NCBI GenBank assembly: GCA_049968255.1
Contig: JBMFRB010000004.1
Coordinates: 192,001-256,000 of the forward strand
Direction of reading: 5' to 3'
Source of the DNA: Candidatus Sumerlaeaceae bacterium
GTDB lineage: Bacteria; Sumerlaeota; Sumerlaeia; Sumerlaeales; Sumerlaeaceae
Length of the DNA stretch: 64,000 bases
Shown here in pieces: positions 16,369 to 52,153 of the stretch; the first letter of the stretch is position 1; each line of letters starts with the position of its first letter. The notes beneath the pieces are model-generated. The model did not search any database. It saw nothing but the letters and a program-made list of their open reading frames with translations, and had not been told where the DNA came from. The translations under genes and the position numbers were made by a program.

Positions 16369-16642
16369 ATCCCTGCCTGTGTTTGACGTTCTTTGCGTTC
16401 TCGCCTCTTGGTAGAAAGCGGGTACGTTCCCAAAAAAAATGAATCATGCAATTGTTTCTCTTGCAAGCCAGGTTGAGCTCAAGTAGGAAGCACCTGAGTG
16501 GCGAAAAAGGGAGGTGATGCAGCAAGCAAAGCACGCGAGTACATGTTTTGGCGGATGAGTGACAGAGGGTCAGAAAGGTCTCCGAGCTGACTCTCTCCGT
16601 AGCGGGAAGAAAAACACGCTCGAACGAGAAGGAGGGAAAACG

Positions 16643-17761
16643 ATGAAGCGACTCTTCGTGTGCGGCTTTGTCTACCTGGCAGGGGCTGTCGTGATGGCTG
16701 ACACGCCGAATGCTATCGGGTACTGGGTCGCACAGTCCGACATCATTCCTGGGTATCCCACGCAGATGGCTGGTGCCGCTGTCGTCGGCGATTACCTTTA
16801 TATTCTTGGTGGCAATAACCTGGTGGAAGGCGACACGGGTCGCGTTTTTCGCCTAAAGATTGATCCGGCAACCGGTGCGCTCAGCGCTTGCACTGCGATG
16901 ACCACTTTGCCGGCGATGAACAATTTTGTCTACATTGGCGAGCAAGTTGAAGCCACGACTGACAGTATCTACATTTGCGGCGGTGGTTACAATACGACTG
17001 GCCCCAACCGTAACAATGTTACCTCGATTGGTGTGGATTCGAATGGCAACTTTTCCTCGCCGGCTTGGAAGGAAAGCCCTGCATTCCCCGGCGGATATGA
17101 TCCGGAACTTGGCTCGGCTGCGATTGCACAAAACGGCTACATCTACGCTATGGGCGGAGATAGTGAGAGCGGAACCCCGCCGCTTTACGACATTTGCGTT
17201 TATGCCCAAACTCAGGCTGACGGGAATTTGGGAACATTTGCCACGGGAGCGACACTTCCCTCCGCGTGCTACTTCAATGCGAATGCAGCAATTGGCAACA
17301 ACATCATTCTGCACCGCGGACTGACGACCAAGGGTGTGAACACGTCCGTGACGAGCGATATTTACGTCAATACCGTGAACAACGATGGAAGCATGGGTAG
17401 CTGGGTCCAGCAGACATCGGCAAATTTGCCGGCCGGCCGTTACAATCTAGGCCTAGTCGCTGTCGGCGATACCGTGTTCGCCATTGGTGGGCGCGCCTCG
17501 GGCGGGACACCGCAAAACAACGTGTGGCGTGCGCAGATGACGGGCAGCAGCTTGGGAGCATGGCAGACTTCGACAGATGCGCAACTGCCCGACGGAGTTC
17601 GGTACCATGCGGTCGTCTACTCGCCCACAAGCAAAAGCCTGTACGTCGTGAGTATTCGGCGTGCAAGCGACGGTGCTGTCTCGAACGAAGCGTATATATC
17701 TGCGCCGTTGTTCCCCCGCACCGTTTCGGCAGCCGCGCAAGACTGGAGCCTGTACGAGTAA
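16643..17761 (+). CDS. secreted Kelch-like beta-propeller protein with a C-terminal W-x-x-Y tail
   Basis: RBS GGAGG before ATG 16643, signal peptide MKRLFVCGFVYLAGAVVMA, and Kelch-type blades (YLYILGG, IYICGG, YIYAMGG, VFAIGG). Ends SAAAQDWSLYE. Confidence 0.8.
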   Translation: MKRLFVCGFVYLAGAVVMADTPNAIGYWVAQSDIIPGYPTQMAGAAVVGDYLYILGGNNLVEGDTGRVFRLKIDPATGALSACTAMTTLPAMNNFVYIGEQVEATTDSIYICGGGYNTTGPNRNNVTSIGVDSNGNFSSPAWKESPAFPGGYDPELGSAAIAQNGYIYAMGGDSESGTPPLYDICVYAQTQADGNLGTFATGATLPSACYFNANAAIGNNIILHRGLTTKGVNTSVTSDIYVNTVNNDGSMGSWVQQTSANLPAGRYNLGLVAVGDTVFAIGGRASGGTPQNNVWRAQMTGSSLGAWQTSTDAQLPDGVRYHAVVYSPTSKSLYVVSIRRASDGAVSNEAYISAPLFPRTVSAAAQDWSLYE

Positions 17762-45985: not shown

Positions 45986-46056
45986 GAGCTGAATAACTCA
46001 ACGCCAGTCGCGTATATTCGGTGCGGTTTCTTCACGCGCTCGCTGAGGTCAAACTC

Positions 46057-46132
<76 letters not shown>

Positions 46133-46358
46133 CCTCTCTCACCCCGCGGGGAAACCGTATTTCTTTTCGGTCGGCACTTCTCGGGGCGCCCGTGGCTGAG
46201 CTACTTTTCGGAATCCGAGACGAGGCCTGTTTTCTCTCCAAACATTCTGTTGTCCTTCGACCAAACAACGACTTATTAGAAAAAACTGTGTCCTTTCCGG
46301 TGGGGAAAGGACGCAAAATGTTACTCTGGCCTAGATGTTGGCCACCACCCGCTGTGCG

Positions 46359-49139
46359 TTAGTAGCGTCGCCAACCCTCAACACTTGCACCTGGTCCAAT
46401 CGTCACGTCTGCGGAATTTAGAGGTGTCTTGCTCGACACGTTCTGCAAATCAGTGGCGTTGTTGTCCGTGTCGGTGTAAGGGCCAACGTTCCCCCCTGGG
46501 CGTTTTCGAGCGAACGTTACGGTTGAGCTCCCTGCACTTCCTCCGAAAGCGGTTCCTTCATGGAGATTGTTTGGGTTTGTGGCGCCACCCAGGAACGAGA
46601 ATCCATCAATTCTCGATCCACTACCATTAAACACCCCTATCGAGCGGCCCGTGCTGTCACCCATGCCCCCGAACAGCCCGTTCGTATTCGTATCTTGAAG
46701 GTCCGGCGTCTTTCCTTCGCAAGTTCCTCCATAAGCCTGTGAAGAAATGAGGAAATGTCCGTAGCCAGGCACCGTCCCGTTCAAATTGAGCACTTTGTCA
46801 GTGGTGTCTCCACCGGCACGACTGCGGAGCTGCCAGCCACTCAGCGAGACCGGAGCACTGGATTGATTAGCCAAAACGATGAATTCCTTACCTGCGGTTC
46901 CATCGCTGCCGCGGGTTGAAACCATTACAATTTTTATCGTGCCCGAGTTCGGGTTCTGAACTGCGACTGGGGTCGTTCCCTGGGAAGCAAACGTAGGGTC
47001 TACGTCCGCACCGCCGCTAGGTGCATGAACAATGCCGTTTGCGGTCAGGGTAATTTGGAAGTTTGTGGCGTCCGGAGCGCTTGCCGCAAGATCGGCAGCA
47101 ACAACAAAGCGACTTGTGGTCGGTGTAATTCGCCAACTGCCCGCGCCAAAGTAAAAGCCGCCACCACTGATGGTCGTTGAGTCAATGAGCGTGTCGCCCG
47201 GCGTGACCGACTGGCTATTGTCAGCGTCATAATAGAGCTTCACTGCGGAAATCCCGCTGTCAGGACACGTGCCAGATTTTGTGAAGCTCATCGTGTTCAC
47301 GTCCCATTCGTTGGAGTTCGCTGTGAGGGCGACACTGAGCAATGCAACATTTGTGGCGCCGGCTAAAACCGTCGAAGGAGCCACGTTGCCGACTGCAACA
47401 GAAAGTGTATCTCCGTCGGACACCCCGCCTGTCACGGTGGCGCTGTTGCTGGCGAACGTCGAAAACGTCGGATTGATGTCACTCCCACCGGTGGAAGAGC
47501 TGACAAGGCCATTTGAGTTCACAGCGAGGGCAATAGTCCGGCCATTGACAAGTGTGCCACTGAAGGTGGCCACGAGAAGCAAATCAACCTGAGTGTTTGT
47601 AATCCGCAACGGCGATGACAGGGAAAGTGTGGCGCTGCTGCCAGAAAATGTCGCCGACGCCAGAAGCACATCGCCATTGTCCACGATCGCGTTCGCATTG
47701 GCATCGTGGTATAGCTCGGTTGAGATCACGCTGCTGTCGGCCAGCGTCCCACTCTTGCTCACGGAGACGCTTCCGAGATCCCACTCGTTAGAAGCGGCAG
47801 CACACCGTATTCGGATGAACGGGACATCGGTCAGGCCCGGCGTGATAGTCGTCGGCGCAAGATCCGCGAAGGTCACATTCAACGGGTCACCATTTGACAC
47901 CCCTCCCGTCACAGTTGCCGCGTTGCTAGCAAAGGCACTGAAGCTAGGATCGAGATCGTTTCCTCCCGACGTGGCGTGAATGATCGAATTCGCGTCGATC
48001 TGCAGCCGCAATGCCTGGCCACTTGGCGCAGAACTTGACACTGTGGCAACAACGAGAAACGCTGCCGGTGTTGTAGTAACCCGCGACGGCAAGCTGCATG
48101 TCAAAGTTGCTGTTGCGCCGCTGAAAGTCTGTGTCGCTACGAGCGTGTCCGCACTTGTGACAGTTCCACTTTGATCAACGTCACGGTAAAGGCGGACTTG
48201 CGTGATATTTGACGAGGCCAGAGTGCCAATGTTGCGCACTGTCACTGCAGACAAGTCCCATTCATGGGCCGATGCCGTCAGCGTAAACGAAATCACCGGA
48301 TAATTTACGGCTCCAGCACTCACCGTTGCCATGGCCCTGTTTGTAAAACTCACACTGACAGAGTCACCGTTGCTTACCGGAGACCAAATGAGATTGGCAA
48401 ACTCTGGCCGGTCGATGAAGGGGTTTCGATTGTGCTGATAGGTTTGGTAGATTTTATCGTTGCGGGTGCGCTCGGCATCGTCCGGCGGATCCTGAGCGTG
48501 CCACTGGAGCAAGGTCGAAAGGACTCCCATTTGACCATAGTTTGGGGAAACAGTGTCGAGCAATAGGAGATCAGACTCGCCCCCCGTTCCGTCGTACCGC
48601 ACGTCCATGTAGAAAAGCGCGCGGGCCACGTCGCCCTTCTGCGCATCGCGCGGTTCGAACTTGGTAGAAGTCCAGTAATTCCCGTAGCCGGAGCCCGTGT
48701 AGGACGGGTAAACATTGTCGAACACACTGTTGCCCCGGCTGCTATTGAGCGACGCGTCTTCGGCAAACAGGTGATGAAGATCGCTCTTTTTGGGCGAAAC
48801 GTCGGCACCAAGCGATTGCGGCCACAAATGCTCACGGTTCCATGTAGAGCCAAATGATGATTTCGGTACCGACGTTCCCTTGTAATGCAACAGAACATTG
48901 TTCGAGTTGTTCGGATCCTCGTCGAGATCCTTGAGAGCCCCTTCGGTCGCTGTGTAAGAAATCACCGTGTGGTTCTTGATAATGTTATGGAGGGCATTCT
49001 TGAGTGCTGTGCCCGACAATCCTTCCGCACTGTCATAATATCCCGGAGGTGGGCCTGCAATAGCGGCTAAGGCGAAAAAAACTGCGACTGAACATGCACC
49101 TCTGCGGGAATACGAGTGAAGTGATATTCGCGAGCTCAT
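46359..49139 (-). CDS. secreted endonuclease I (Bsn/EndA-like) + 3 x 159-aa repeats + lamin-tail-like domain + W-x-x-Y tail
   Basis: WNREHLWPQS, DLHHLF, NSSRGN, KGDVARALFYMDVRY and NRNPFID. LTD-like 'EFIVLAN...VSLSGWQL'. Ends ASVEGWRRY. ATG 49139 is preferred. Confidence 0.9.
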   Translation of the reverse strand: MSSRISLHSYSRRGACSVAVFFALAAIAGPPPGYYDSAEGLSGTALKNALHNIIKNHTVISYTATEGALKDLDEDPNNSNNVLLHYKGTSVPKSSFGSTWNREHLWPQSLGADVSPKKSDLHHLFAEDASLNSSRGNSVFDNVYPSYTGSGYGNYWTSTKFEPRDAQKGDVARALFYMDVRYDGTGGESDLLLLDTVSPNYGQMGVLSTLLQWHAQDPPDDAERTRNDKIYQTYQHNRNPFIDRPEFANLIWSPVSNGDSVSVSFTNRAMATVSAGAVNYPVISFTLTASAHEWDLSAVTVRNIGTLASSNITQVRLYRDVDQSGTVTSADTLVATQTFSGATATLTCSLPSRVTTTPAAFLVVATVSSSAPSGQALRLQIDANSIIHATSGGNDLDPSFSAFASNAATVTGGVSNGDPLNVTFADLAPTTITPGLTDVPFIRIRCAAASNEWDLGSVSVSKSGTLADSSVISTELYHDANANAIVDNGDVLLASATFSGSSATLSLSSPLRITNTQVDLLLVATFSGTLVNGRTIALAVNSNGLVSSSTGGSDINPTFSTFASNSATVTGGVSDGDTLSVAVGNVAPSTVLAGATNVALLSVALTANSNEWDVNTMSFTKSGTCPDSGISAVKLYYDADNSQSVTPGDTLIDSTTISGGGFYFGAGSWRITPTTSRFVVAADLAASAPDATNFQITLTANGIVHAPSGGADVDPTFASQGTTPVAVQNPNSGTIKIVMVSTRGSDGTAGKEFIVLANQSSAPVSLSGWQLRSRAGGDTTDKVLNLNGTVPGYGHFLISSQAYGGTCEGKTPDLQDTNTNGLFGGMGDSTGRSIGVFNGSGSRIDGFSFLGGATNPNNLHEGTAFGGSAGSSTVTFARKRPGGNVGPYTDTDNNATDLQNVSSKTPLNSADVTIGPGASVEGWRRY
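46940..48368 (-). repeat. three tandem 477-bp (159-aa) coding repeats
   Basis: Repeat starts (GD motif) at 48368, 47891 and 47414. Shared EWD, LYxD and GGxDxxPxF motifs. Confidence 0.9.
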
Positions 49140-49203
49140 GGGATTCCCTTTCCTGAACTTGAAAAAGATACCTACACCACGCAGAGACAAAACGGTTTGC
49201 AAC

Positions 49204-49239
49204 AAAAAAAAAGCGGCTAGCGTAGCCTCGGCCAGCCGC
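49204..49239 (-). terminator. intrinsic terminator between the two nuclease paralogs
   Basis: The minus strand reads GCGGCTGGC-N9-GCTAGCCGC followed by T9. Confidence 0.75.
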
Positions 49240-49265: not shown

Positions 49266-52061
49266 TCACTCTACGGAGAAAGCGGAAAGGACTGTTGGCA
49301 AATTCATAGCCGAAGACTTTGGTGTTTTGCTTGCCACCACCAGGAGATCCGTAGAATTATTGTCTGTGTCGAAGTAATATAGCGTCCCCGGCACGGTCTT
49401 TCTAGCATACGAGTTTATAGCACTACCGCTATTCCCCGAGAAAGCTGTACCATCCCGGTAATAATTCACGTCATTTGTCGCACCGCCAGCAAACGAAAAT
49501 CCATCGATTTTGTTCGCTGACGCCGCTGTCCCGTCGTAAAGAGCAATCGAACGTCCTGTAGTGTCGGCCATTCCGCCAAATAAACCGTTCGTGTTTGTGT
49601 CCGAAAAGTCAGGCGTAAGCCCCTCGCAAGAACTTCCGTACGGGTTCGATGCGATAAGGAAAAATGATTTTGCGGGAATGGTTCCTGTCAACGTGATAGG
49701 AGAGCCATCGCTTGTTGAACTACCTGCCCGAGTCCTGAGTTGCCAATTGTTGAGCGATACCGGAGAGGCCTCGTGGTTAGCTAGCACGATAAACTCCTGA
49801 GATGCAGTTCCAGCGCTGCTCCGTGTCGATACCATCACAATCTTCACCTTGGGTAAAGTTGGATTGATGACGGCTACAAGGTTACTCGCTTGGTCAGCGA
49901 ATGTGGGATTTGTATCGGTGCCTCCCGAAGGGGAATAAACGATTCCGTTGGCATTGACCTTGATTCCAACCATGCGTCCGCTTGGCGACGATGCGGCGAG
50001 GTCAGCGGCAATGATAAGCCTCACCGGTGCGGGCGTCACACGCACAGCGCCCCCTACCTGAAATGTAGCTGCGCCACTGCTAAGCGTGCGGAAATCAATC
50101 AGGGCTTCCTCACTGTCAATCTGGTCATTTCCGTTTTCATCCACATAAAGTTTCACCGCTGCAACGGCCGAATCATCCGCATTTCCCAACTTCGACACCG
50201 CGATCGTTCCGACATCCCACTCGTTCGCACTGGCTGTGAGCGTGAGTTTCAGGAGTGGAACATTTGTCGCACCAAGCGTTGCTGTCGTGGGTGCAAGGTT
50301 TGTGCTTGATACGCTTAGCGTGTCACCATCGTGAACTCCTCCGGTGACGGTGGCAAGCGCGGTTGAAAAATTCGAGACAGAAGGATTGAAATCGTTGCCA
50401 CCGGTCGGTGAGCTCGTGAAGCTGTTTCCAAGCACCTGAATGCCAATGGTCTGACCGTTGGAAAGTAAACTCGCGGTGTCCAACGTCACCAAAAACTGGG
50501 CGCCTACCGTTGTCACCCGCTGTGGCTGAGTCAAAGAAAAGGTTGCCTGCCCACCGGCGAAGGCACGTGTATCCAACAATGTGTCGCCGGCGTCGGCCAC
50601 ACCGTCCTGATCATTATCGAGATAGAGCCTTACAGCCGTGATTTGATTATCAGGCACGGTTCCTGTTTTGGCCACGCTGAAACCAGCAAGGTCCCATTCG
50701 TTCGAATTCGCGGTCAGATTCACTGAGACAAACGCTACGTTTGAAGCACTTGGCACAATCGTTGCAGGCGCTCTGTCGGTAAAGCTGATATTTACTGTAT
50801 CGCCGTCGCTCACACCGCCGCTCACTACAGCCGCAGTGCTACTGAACGCGGTGAAAGAAGGATCCACATCGTTTCCCCCGGTGCTCGCGTGCATTAGGCT
50901 GTTGGCGTTCACTTGGATCTGCAAGGTCTGGCCTGACGGCGCGGTTGTCGCGATGTCGGCTGTGATGAGGAAGTGGACGGTCTGAGTCGTGACGCGTGAA
51001 GGATAGGCACAGTTTAGGGTTGCATTTGCCGAACTGAACGTTGAAGTGGCTAACAAAATATCGCCAGGCGATACGCTCCCACTATTATCCATATCGCGGA
51101 AAAGTCGAACGGCCTGGATGAAGTTGTCGGCCAATGTCCCAACATTGGACACACCCACCGACTGAATGTCCCACTCACCCGTGTTTGCCGTCAGTTCTAA
51201 AGACAGCAGAGAATAATTCGTGGCGCCAGCAGCCACCGTTGCAGCTGCGCGGTTTGTGTAACTCAAAGACACTGTGTCATTGTCGGTCACCGGCCCCCAG
51301 ATCAAATAAACAAACTCTGGATGATCTACAAAAGGGTTTCGGTTGTGCTGAAACAACGCGTAAATCTGGTCGTTGCGTTGCTGCTCGCGTGCATCTGGAA
51401 GATCAAACCAGTGCCATTGCAGAAGCGTTGGGAGGACCCCCATTTCGTCATAGGCCGGCGCTGTTGTATTCTTAAGGACAAGGTCCGGTTCCCCGCCAGT
51501 TCCATCGTATCGCACGTCCATATACAGGAGTGCCCGTGCAACGTCGCCCTTTTGCGGATCCCGCACCTCGAAGCGTGTACCGGTCCAATAATTGCCGTAG
51601 GCCGAATTTGTCTGGTTCGGGTAAACGTTATCAAACACGCTGTTGCCGCGGCTGCTGTTGAGCACAGCATCCTCCGAAAAAATATGGTGGAGATCTGTGT
51701 TCGGAGGAAGAACATCAGCGCCGAGGGACTGTGGCCAGAGATGCTCGCGGTTCCATGTTGTGCCAAAATTCGCCTTTGGCTCTGAGGTTCCCTTGTAATG
51801 CAGCAAGACGTTATTGGTGTTATTCGGGTCCTCATCCAGGAGTTTGAGGGCTGCCCGCGTGTCCGTCGTGCTGCTGCTCGTGTAAGGCAGCACCGTGTGG
51901 TTCTTGATGATGTTGTGCAATGCTTGGCGCAAAGCATTGCCAGACAGCCCCATGGCGGAGTCATAGTAGCCTGGTGGCGGCGCCGCCAACACATTGGCAA
52001 CAAGGGCCCCGCAAATGATGCCCCAGAGGAGGCGTGGCAGGCGTGGGTTTTGCGTTGTCAT
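49266..52061 (-). CDS. secreted endonuclease I paralog + 3 x 159-aa repeats + lamin-tail-like domain + LPTVLSAFSVE tail
   Basis: Same catalytic motifs (WNREHLWPQS, KGDVARALLYMDVRY, NRNPFVD). Signal peptide ends VLA before PPPGYY. Confidence 0.9.
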   Translation of the reverse strand: MTTQNPRLPRLLWGIICGALVANVLAAPPPGYYDSAMGLSGNALRQALHNIIKNHTVLPYTSSSTTDTRAALKLLDEDPNNTNNVLLHYKGTSEPKANFGTTWNREHLWPQSLGADVLPPNTDLHHIFSEDAVLNSSRGNSVFDNVYPNQTNSAYGNYWTGTRFEVRDPQKGDVARALLYMDVRYDGTGGEPDLVLKNTTAPAYDEMGVLPTLLQWHWFDLPDAREQQRNDQIYALFQHNRNPFVDHPEFVYLIWGPVTDNDTVSLSYTNRAAATVAAGATNYSLLSLELTANTGEWDIQSVGVSNVGTLADNFIQAVRLFRDMDNSGSVSPGDILLATSTFSSANATLNCAYPSRVTTQTVHFLITADIATTAPSGQTLQIQVNANSLMHASTGGNDVDPSFTAFSSTAAVVSGGVSDGDTVNISFTDRAPATIVPSASNVAFVSVNLTANSNEWDLAGFSVAKTGTVPDNQITAVRLYLDNDQDGVADAGDTLLDTRAFAGGQATFSLTQPQRVTTVGAQFLVTLDTASLLSNGQTIGIQVLGNSFTSSPTGGNDFNPSVSNFSTALATVTGGVHDGDTLSVSSTNLAPTTATLGATNVPLLKLTLTASANEWDVGTIAVSKLGNADDSAVAAVKLYVDENGNDQIDSEEALIDFRTLSSGAATFQVGGAVRVTPAPVRLIIAADLAASSPSGRMVGIKVNANGIVYSPSGGTDTNPTFADQASNLVAVINPTLPKVKIVMVSTRSSAGTASQEFIVLANHEASPVSLNNWQLRTRAGSSTSDGSPITLTGTIPAKSFFLIASNPYGSSCEGLTPDFSDTNTNGLFGGMADTTGRSIALYDGTAASANKIDGFSFAGGATNDVNYYRDGTAFSGNSGSAINSYARKTVPGTLYYFDTDNNSTDLLVVASKTPKSSAMNLPTVLSAFSVE
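49851..51281 (-). repeat. three tandem 477-bp (159-aa) coding repeats
   Basis: Repeat starts at 51281, 50804 and 50327. Confidence 0.9.
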
Positions 52062-52153
52062 CTCGGTCACTTCCCTTTGCGAGGATTGAACCACTAAAAC
52101 AGATCAGAATAGCGACAGCCTTATTCCCAATTCAATAGGATTTGTCGCCGCGT

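Follow-up and report, generated by a model that had tools for sequence, protein, structure and literature searches.

Two genes within a single stretch of bacterial DNA raise the question of how a cell might mark unrelated proteins for a common fate. The stretch, referred to below as the window, comprises 64,000 nucleotides of contig JBMFRB010000004.1 (positions 192,001 to 256,000 of the forward strand) from Candidatus Sumerlaeaceae bacterium, assembly GCA_049968255.1, a member of the phylum Sumerlaeota. One of the genes encodes a Kelch beta-propeller protein and the other a nuclease combining an Endonuclease I domain with a Lamin-tail domain (LTD), and the products of both end in a short tail built around a tryptophan. 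A reading made from the sequence alone had proposed that this tail is a novel sorting signal. Comparison with the remainder of the genome, and with the genomes of other bacteria, makes it fairly probable that this short, linear C-terminal tail is a lineage-specific tag for sorting or anchoring, a function that we infer from sequence comparison. The features of the window which bear on the question are listed below; residues of the tail are numbered from the tryptophan (0), and a distinction is drawn between class-1 tails, as found on the two proteins above, and the related class-2 tails.

16643..17761, + strand: Kelch beta-propeller gene, predicted exported cargo with a class-1 tail
16643..16705 (end approximate), + strand: putative signal peptide of the Kelch protein, MKRLFVCGFVYLAGAVVMAD..., a heuristic call at internal start 28
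17720..17758, + strand: linker and class-1 tail of the Kelch protein, TVSAAAQDWSLYE; W at 17744-17746, stop codon at 17759-17761
46359..49205, - strand: Endonuclease I + LTD gene, predicted exported cargo with a class-1 tail
46362..46397, - strand: linker and class-1 tail of the nuclease, GPGASVEGWRRY; divergent (-1 is G; +1 and +2 are both R)
49266..52094, - strand: gene for a nuclease paralogue of 942 amino acids (aa), adjoining the nuclease gene (BLAST cluster g1275/g1276); end ...NLPTVLSAFSVE
49269..49301, - strand: class-2 tail of the nuclease paralogue, LPTVLSAFSVE

Both tails lie where the sequence-only reading had placed them, at the ends of their open reading frames (ORFs). In its longest form the Kelch ORF occupies 16559..17761 (+) and has the C-terminal end ...TVSAAAQDWSLYE, positions 17720-17761 being those 13 codons and the stop. 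The start at 16643 (MKRLF...) is likely to be the true one in preference to that at 16559, and the resulting form of 372 aa is an exact match to database gene calls. Pfam recognizes repeats of the Kelch_6, Kelch_1 and KLHDC2 types in this protein. Its N-terminal region is hydrophobic in the 13 homologues with full N-termini, and in an AlphaFold2 model residues 2-16, the region of the signal peptide, form a helix of low predicted local distance difference test score (pLDDT). For the nuclease, Endonuclease_1 is matched at 1.6e-40, whilst the LTD scores 31 bits, under its cut-off of 34.3 bits. Translation likely begins at 49139 (MSSRISLHSY...), and the heuristic finds a signal-peptide-like segment, MSSRISLHSYSRRGACSVAVFFALAAIAG, at internal start 22. 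Thus both proteins have signal-peptide-like N-termini, as had been claimed, albeit at internal starts. The claim that the window holds only two instances of the tail stands for class 1 but not beyond it, since the neighbouring paralogue at 49266..52094 ends in the related class-2 tail. The consensus originally offered, A-x-x-x-x-W-x-x-Y, has to be replaced, as it misses the conserved part of the motif: V(-3), D/E(-1), W(0), L(+2) and Y/F(+3).

The case for a real signal begins with the statistics of C-termini in the genome that holds the window (G000; 3.12 Mb in 31 contigs). Its gene set is a crude, home-made call in which 2417 ORFs account for 90% of the DNA. Since C-termini are set by stop codons alone, a test for enrichment of the tail is independent of errors in start sites. 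The regular expression W..Y.{0,2}$, proposed earlier as a check over the whole proteome, matches 22 of the 2417 ORFs where composition predicts 2.9; on ends shortened by 10-205 residues the mean is 3.0 and the maximum 8. The pattern thus lies well outside chance. A narrower expression, [DE]W.[LVIM]Y.{0,2}$, finds 16 C-termini against a control mean of 0.125, and when [DE]W.[LVIM]Y is sought throughout the proteome, 16 of its 24 occurrences fall within the final 8 residues. Once ends in W..F are included, 27 proteins of G000 have class-1 tails. Their consensus is P-x-x-[SA]-[GA]-V-x-[DE]-W-x-L-[YF], after which come 0-2 further residues, mostly E/D/Q, and the five conserved positions named above are preceded by a linker rich in P, S, T and N.

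A position-specific scoring matrix (PSSM) separates these proteins from all others. The distribution of scores is bimodal, with 27 proteins at 18 bits or more, two at 13.4 and 10.8, and the remaining proteome at or below 3.4; the matrix was trained on the same 27 tails, and its maximum among 18,292 control ends is 13.8. The nuclease of the window, with 18.7 bits, is the third lowest of the 27. Two weak variants of the tail in G000 end ...VSSWELE and ...AVDWQLLE. At the level of DNA, the pattern V-x-[DE]-W-x-[LF]-[YF]-stop has 12 matches in G000 and none in the reversed control, and one extra carrier is found at a contig end. The codons of the tail vary synonymously among these matches and all three stop codons are used, which argues for selection at the level of the protein.

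The carriers of the tail are diverse. After removal of the last 15 residues, the 31 tail proteins fall into 24 BLAST clusters, four of which hold 2-3 paralogues. Carriers that act on glycans include a GH18 chitinase, a GH57 protein with CBM53/25, an alpha-amylase with LTD, and a polysaccharide deacetylase with Golvesin_C (Pfam and NCBIfam assignments). Among the peptidases are two subtilases, one with a P-domain and one with Golvesin_C, an M1 peptidase with Golvesin_C, and a metalloprotease of the NF038122 type. Endonuclease_1 with LTD, Kelch, FG-GAP, fn3, CBM9/CBM11 and an LIC_13355-like protein complete the assigned repertoire, together with one carrier (L015) that has three 'choice-of-anchor X' domains (choice_anch_X at 3.3e-29). 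At the Pfam thresholds used (E<=0.001 for 27 carriers and E<=0.01 for the two in the window), 10 of the 29 carriers scanned have no Pfam family. As a side observation, four enzymes that otherwise differ, namely the deacetylase, a subtilase, the M1 peptidase and an FAD oxidoreductase (C5:8529-9734, C5:103538-106210, C5:196466-199318 and C1:118386-120944 in G000), all have Golvesin_C (PF25275) as their final folded domain ahead of the tail. This domain may serve the secretome widely, for carbohydrate binding or as a spacer.

Most of these proteins appear to be exported. A heuristic test for signal peptides is positive for 22 of the 27 class-1 carriers and for 934 of the 2390 other ORFs (Fisher p = 1e-5), the heuristic being a permissive one. 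Amongst the five negative carriers, three have a clear signal peptide, as judged by eye, at a downstream start, the fourth is truncated where its contig ends, and the fifth is an FG-GAP protein. The description of the carriers as unrelated exported proteins is therefore borne out by 24 unrelated sequence clusters, most with signal peptides, and the enrichment expected among signal-peptide proteins is found.

The tail itself has neither a membrane helix nor a basic cluster, as the sequence-only reading had stated. Over the 27 class-1 tails, the hydropathy of 15-residue segments within the last 40 residues does not exceed 1.42, and the final 12 residues contain on average 0.37 lysine plus arginine and have a net charge of -1.6. 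In the 13 residues ahead of the core, proline makes up 12.5% against 5.4% in the proteome, and N, T and S are also enriched. Conservation is concentrated in the tail. In 15 homologues of the Kelch protein, at 44-83% identity, the tail is kept in every case and the tryptophan is invariant, whilst the linker between the end of the propeller and the tail has insertions and deletions of 0-9 residues, including a PTPTPTPTP insert. Orthologues of the subtilase retain the tail down to ~40% identity. An AlphaFold2 model of the Kelch protein, built from the alignment of homologues, has a confident propeller and a mean pLDDT of 88, but the tail residues 363-372 fall below 50. Given this low pLDDT and the indels in the linker, the tail is read as an exposed linear peptide rather than a fold: to judge from the model, it behaves as a peptide on a flexible tether, lying outside any folded domain.

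The strongest comparative argument for a role in sorting comes from sequence comparison within the family of one small tail protein, L002, where the tail is interchanged with known sorting signals. L002 has 266 aa and no Pfam family, and consists of a domain of ~230 aa, ending ...DELRVxTSWxDVT, and the tail. A first protein search gave 51 family members, L002 included, of which 31 have class-1 tails and 13 have tails like class 2. The seven most distant relatives share the same domain end, ...DELR[VI]G[TS]SWADVT. In three of these (P0064-P0066) the domain runs directly into PEP-CTERM, with VPEP, a helix and RRR; in the other four it is followed by a C-terminal domain of the type IX secretion system (T9SS), three of them PF18962 and one resembling PF18962. 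An exhaustive search with the domain alone (residues 1-250) yielded 1549 representatives at E<=0.001, and ends were read in 54 of the best 150, namely those of at most 460 aa. PF18962 closes 20 of these 54, and the regular expressions find nine class-1 and four class-2 tails; about ten more have near-variant tails and one is PEP-CTERM-like. Length follows the type of end, members of 250-290 aa being domain plus tail and members of 324-447 aa being domain plus T9SS domain. No match to the family was found in five strict-negative genomes.

It is mainly this 'choice of anchor' swap, with PEP-CTERM and T9SS domains in homologues of L002, which leads us to read the tail as a sorting signal. Of the properties by which Haft defines such signals comparatively, those found here are a position at the extreme C-terminus, many unrelated carriers with signal peptides, a restricted range, and interchange with other anchors; for a further one, a co-occurring processing enzyme or receptor, neither the gene neighbourhoods nor the presence of secretin or T2SS parts pointed to a candidate.

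The second class of tail has the consensus LP-x-x-L-[SA]-x-[WF]-x-[LIV]-E-COOH and often ends paralogues or database relatives of class-1 carriers. The expression P.{2,3}L.{2}[WFY].[LIVM]E$ matches four C-termini in G000, against a mean of 0.05 at control positions; besides the nuclease paralogue in the window, the carriers are C1:130926-131975, C4:115114-115815 and C8:83538-84548. The class-2 tail resembles LPVELADFS, which in homologues of the Bacteroidota type opens the segment linking the shared domain to that of the T9SS. From this resemblance, it may be a relic of the LPVELADFS strand or an independent signal.

How widely is the tail distributed? Homologues named Candidatus Sumerlaeaceae and Sumerlaea chitinivorans agree with the placing of G000 in Sumerlaeota. 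In 75 Sumerlaeota genomes the strict DNA pattern has 296 matches against 18 for the reversed control, a 16-fold excess, and 50 of the 75 genomes are matched. All 13 members of the family to which G000 belongs have 7-19 strict matches each. The remark of the sequence-only reading that similar tails occur in Sumerlaeota proteins agrees with these counts. A wide scan for G-V-x-D-W-x-L-Y-TAA, with one genome per species over 185,579 species, gave 46 loci. At 19 of them the match lies at the end of an ORF of at least 150 aa: ten in Sumerlaeota, eight in seven genomes of a second phylum, and one in Caldicoprobacterales. In the remaining named taxa the matches lie within ORFs of less than 60 aa, and those in named phyla outside the two look like chance. 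The seven genomes of the second phylum have 9-28 strict matches each, against 0-2 in the control, whilst 1, 2 and 1 matches were counted in three genomes taken from other phyla as negative controls.

When 35 genomes of the second phylum are taken together, there are 452 strict matches against 13 in the control (35-fold), and 34 of the 35 are matched. This phylum is probably Hinthialibacterota (OLB16), as judged by the close homologues of one cargo protein, which are named Candidatus Hinthialibacter. Its tails have the form (G)-T-[PA]-V-x-[DE]-W-x-L-[YF], and one cargo family has V-x-[DE]-[FY]-M-L-Y. The claim of lineage specificity is thus upheld as regards a restricted range, but must be widened to a second phylum.

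The strict pattern undercounts, and the families with few or no matches are in part an artefact of it. The ends of subtilase homologues in two other Sumerlaeota families illustrate this, being ARAWELYR/W in f4 and EFADYE or LLPYE in f8. An f7 genome (G009; 400 kb, 296 genes) has two tails, GRWRLYDE and SRWRLYR, and W-R-L-Y with R at -1 is the local form of the tail in that family. In an f16 genome (G069; 400 kb, 282 genes) no tails were seen, a result that is only suggestive.

Many prokaryotic C-terminal tags are known, and the tail shares features with several of them. Like PEP-CTERM, the signal of the exosortases (XrtA, EpsH), it is a lineage-restricted C-terminal tag on many unrelated signal-peptide proteins. 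PEP-CTERM differs in that it needs a membrane exosortase, and the tail has neither helix nor basic cluster. The accessible part of Haft's 2023 account describes PEP-CTERM as tripartite, with a motif, a membrane helix and an arginine cluster, and the small C-terminal sorting signals treated there are all tripartite (10.1101/2023.06.07.544157). The same comparative logic of many proteins to one tag applies to LPXTG/sortase, GlyGly-CTERM, PGF-CTERM and MYXO-CTERM; each of these combines, by the same partly available source, a membrane helix with a basic end and relies on a peptidase that is intramembrane or membrane-anchored, whereas the tail has neither helix nor basic end. The T9SS domain (Por_Secre_tail, PF18962/TIGR04183) is the only large class of tag that does without a membrane helix. 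It is closer to the tail on that account, and also because its reading follows Sec export in a diderm cell and because glycosidases, proteases, nucleases and adhesin-like modules carry either signal. It is, however, a folded domain with a Pfam model of 75 positions, whereas the tail, as modelled, is ~10 disordered residues, in keeping with the earlier remark that it is far shorter than a T9SS domain.

Direct searches support these distinctions. No sorting model, including PF07589, TIGR02595, PF18962, TIGR04183 and CHU_C, matches any of the 29 carriers (Pfam and NCBIfam release 20). Sortase (PF04203) has no match in G000, with three controls positive, and exosortase (PF09721) likewise has none, with its control positive. 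The assertion that the tail is neither LPxTG nor PEP-CTERM accordingly agrees with its anatomy, with the model searches and with the lack of sortase and exosortase matches in G000. Across Sumerlaeota, exosortase is present in all seven genomes of family f8 and in 2 of the 12 from f1; every other genome scored lacks a match. For the T9SS translocon SprA (Sov), SprA_N has no match in G000, G066 and G094, the last two comprising a single-contig relative and one Hinthialibacterota genome, while the Bacteroidota controls G113 and G114 score 3.6e-123 and 1.9e-176. A further candidate, the beta-signal of outer-membrane proteins (OMPs), which closes the beta-barrels handled by BAM with a terminal aromatic and alternating hydrophobic residues, was rejected: the hydrophobic residues at -3, 0, +2 and +3 do not alternate, and the carriers are soluble enzyme or binding domains.

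The WxL domain (PF13731) of Firmicutes surface proteins spans about 150-200 residues, contains two motifs and attaches to the peptidoglycan of monoderm cells. It resembles the tail in presenting a C-terminal W-x-L on surface proteins, but the regions ahead of the tail are unrelated (24 clusters) and no WxL match was found by Pfam in the carriers at the thresholds given above. Short C-terminal address tags are best known from eukaryotes: the peroxisomal targeting signal PTS1 (-SKL), read by the TPR domain of PEX5, KDEL, and the plant C-terminal vacuolar sorting determinant (ctVSD), read by the PA domain of the vacuolar sorting receptor (VSR). These offer the best mechanistic fit, being linear, transferable, limited to a few terminal residues and read by soluble receptors, although they serve other compartments and organisms and share no homology with the tail.

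Substrates of type II secretion systems (T2SS) provide a last comparison. Their cargo repertoire matches that of the tail, and G000 has a complete T2SS operon. T2SS signals are held to be structural rather than linear, according to the accessible portion of PMC7949064; precedents in Vibrio, taken from the available parts of PMC12889589 and PMC12369372, are the C-terminally tagged cargo VesB and the role of the PDZ domain of GspC (EpsC). A search of the literature, which excluded supplements and subscription papers, found no description of the tail, and the words 'C-terminal', 'sorting' and 'secreted' were not found in the accessible text of the Hinthialibacterota paper PMC9324843. The tail appears to be undescribed, and by comparison of sequences its kind would be that of a prokaryotic C-terminal sorting signal, with an architecture that would need a different reader.

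A working model can be proposed. Cargo would cross the inner membrane by the Sec route, as indicated by the ordinary N-terminal signal peptides in the sequences. It would then fold in the diderm periplasm, leaving a terminal stretch of ~10 residues, V-x-[DE]-W-x-L-[YF](E), free on a variable linker rich in Pro, Ser, Thr and Asn, as the structure model and the indels of the linker suggest. A receptor belonging to an outer-membrane export or surface-attachment pathway might next read the peptide, in the periplasm or at the outer membrane, and the cargo, mostly enzymes for polymers unable to enter the cell, would be delivered outside or fixed at the surface. Since it has no membrane helix, the tail cannot act like sortase or exosortase signals, which are cut by membrane-embedded enzymes; having no folded domain, it cannot act like the C-terminal domain of the T9SS. 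The second class of tail may specify another fate.

Which machinery could serve such a route? G000 is diderm, with one Omp85 and three secretins, which are located as follows.

PilMNOQ: secretin locus 1
T2SS operon: GspE, F, H-like, I, J, K, L-like and M, a 184-aa gene, a 960-aa GspD and a 239-aa gene
C2:13000-28300 (L096:990-16296): third secretin locus, with an FHA protein, a T2SSE ATPase, an Amuc_1101-type PilM-like protein and a 1576-aa TPR-secretin

The T2SS, together with the unusually large secretin, is the only complete outer-membrane export apparatus found in nearly all the tail genomes examined. A secretin-based, T2SS-like route is the leading candidate for the machinery, weakly supported and on balance doubtful. 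The first 1000 aa of the TPR-secretin have matches in 69 of the 75 Sumerlaeota genomes, among them members of families that show no strict tails. Its part from residue 601 to the end, with the conserved middle of the protein, is matched in all 35 second-phylum genomes, though only weakly in G085, the sole genome without a tail match. A GspK-like protein is present in 72 of 75 Sumerlaeota and 35 of 35 second-phylum genomes; the three negatives (G002, G004 and G042) also lack strict tails but are 72-87% complete, and hence no weight is given to them. The phylogenetic profiling suggested earlier as a check for co-occurring machinery thus failed to discriminate, as regards the large secretin and the GspK-like protein, between genomes with and without tails. 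Because the secretin and T2SS are near-universal in both phyla, the secretin route gains no specific support from their presence.

Gene neighbourhoods add little. Among the 302 genes within six positions of tail genes in G000, the families that recur are common ones (GAF histidine kinases, sigma-54 regulators, GT4 and hexapeptide transferases, and ABC ATPases), and no dedicated enzyme was seen. The genome encodes 29 proteins with a prepilin motif, mostly paralogues of a GspG-like major pseudopilin (…FTLIELLIVVAIIAILAAIAVPNFLEAQ…), for example at C4:188980-189651, C5:256499-257131, C6:75502-76194 and C9:121539-122222, and the family is found in the second phylum too. These GspG-like pseudopilins lie beside tail genes in both phyla, yet were rejected as partners of the tail since the adjacency is at the level of chance; in G000, one prepilin-motif gene is observed within one gene of a tail gene against 1.06 expected (p=0.67).

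A few individual loci may be recorded. The last gene of an exopolysaccharide-type locus of G000 (C2:29504-36508; L030:2504-9508) bears the tail. The locus encodes a GAF histidine kinase, a sigma-54 response regulator, GT4, a FemAB-like protein and a hexapeptide acetyltransferase, and has no exosortase; four of its proteins score below cut-off against PrsK, PrsR, stp2 and pepcterm_femAB of the XrtA/PEP-CTERM system. A gene for a SurA-like parvulin peptidyl-prolyl isomerase (C2:114336-115952, 538 aa) is flanked, all on one strand, by a pair of paralogous tail genes (C2:112933-117153; L031:9933-14153), and an FKBP gene adjoins another tail gene (C3:67855-69955). In the window, the gap just past the 3' end of the nuclease gene contains a tRNA-Phe (GAA) gene at 46057-46132 (+); the ORFs 46021..46362 (+) and 46068..46316 (-), which lie over it, are not genes.

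Other explanations of the tail differ greatly in their plausibility. That it has no function, and reflects chance, composition, a gene-calling artefact or the end of one paralogous family, might be suggested by the few paralogous carriers (four clusters of 2-3 proteins). This is refuted, and its probability is close to nil, given the 24 unrelated clusters, an excess over controls of more than 100-fold, the 16-fold and 35-fold ratios of pattern to reversed pattern in the two phyla, and the synonymous variation of codons. It is very improbable that the tail is a degenerate or minimal form of a known signal, be it the T9SS domain, PEP-CTERM, LPXTG, WxL or the OMP beta-signal. The resemblance of the class-2 form LPVxLSx[WF]x[LIV]E to the LPVELADFS ahead of the T9SS domain could be taken that way, as could the exosortase in every genome of family f8, but no model matches the 29 carriers, the tail has no helix or basic cluster, SprA, sortase and exosortase were not found in G000, and the hydrophobic residues do not alternate in carriers that are soluble enzymes.

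The two remaining alternatives grant the tail a function. One is that it is a surface-retention peptide: the carriers would leave by general export, for instance through a T2SS that reads folded features, and the aromatic and acidic tail would then bind the surface non-covalently, through lipopolysaccharide, exopolysaccharide or an outer-membrane protein, much as WxL holds on to the peptidoglycan of Firmicutes. Many carriers are indeed binding modules (Kelch, FG-GAP, CBM9/11 and LamG-like small proteins), a tail gene ends the exopolysaccharide-type locus, and W, L and Y/F favour membrane interfaces. Furthermore, the PEP-CTERM and T9SS domains that replace the tail lead to surface attachment, as far as the available text of 10.1101/2023.06.07.544157 goes. 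On the other hand, a mere three or four hydrophobic residues bind only feebly by themselves, the strict conservation of V(-3) and D/E(-1) suggests a specific protein receptor, and no surface polymer or anchor protein is linked to the tail; we regard retention as unlikely. Recognition by a periplasmic protease or chaperone, in quality control, pro-peptide removal or stress sensing, is more improbable still. Models for it exist in DegS, which reads the C-termini of OMPs, in PDZ proteases of the Tsp/Ctp type and in chaperones of the SurA type, and both the parvulin and FKBP genes beside tail genes and the small residues [SA]-[GA] directly before the conserved core are in its favour. The chaperones adjoin tail genes at single loci only, however, and such a tag leaves unexplained both the position of the tail at the site of PEP-CTERM and T9SS domains in homologues and the typical extracellular-hydrolase cargo.

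The interpretation of the tail as a sorting or anchoring tag is itself opposed by several observations. The FG-GAP carrier (C6:67798-71580) has no signal peptide at any start examined, and neither the gene call nor the test for signal peptides is more than a home-made, permissive one, with 39% of the background positive. The tail stops at Y/F or one to two residues beyond, a poor fit to any receptor for which the terminal carboxylate must be fixed. A receptor, peptidase or transporter co-occurring specifically with the tail was not found, as judged by the presence of the secretin and T2SS and by neighbourhoods, and no gene family adjoins tail genes recurrently above chance in the neighbourhoods of both phyla. 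Both phyla, moreover, appear to be known from metagenome genomes only.

If the tail is nonetheless a sorting tag, its significance would lie in what has to read it. Some ~10 disordered residues must be read differently from tripartite tags or T9SS domains, which implies that a receptor or enzyme awaits discovery. It is attractive, if rather speculative, to consider that this may be the first short, linear and transferable export tag read in a bacterial periplasm, a counterpart of PTS1 and KDEL, which might lead to a secretin channel or to a wholly new machine present in both phyla, the two classes of tail corresponding to two fates such as release and surface retention. Should the T2SS route prove true, it would supply a linear signal for a machine whose recognition of substrates has been elusive, and one testable with peptides. 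A tag so small could also become an export handle for engineered proteins, given a host or a reconstituted pathway. In G000 about 1% of the genes, roughly 30 proteins, carry the tag, and it would thus provide a one-line rule with which to predict the extracellular and surface proteome of two uncultured phyla of polymer degraders.

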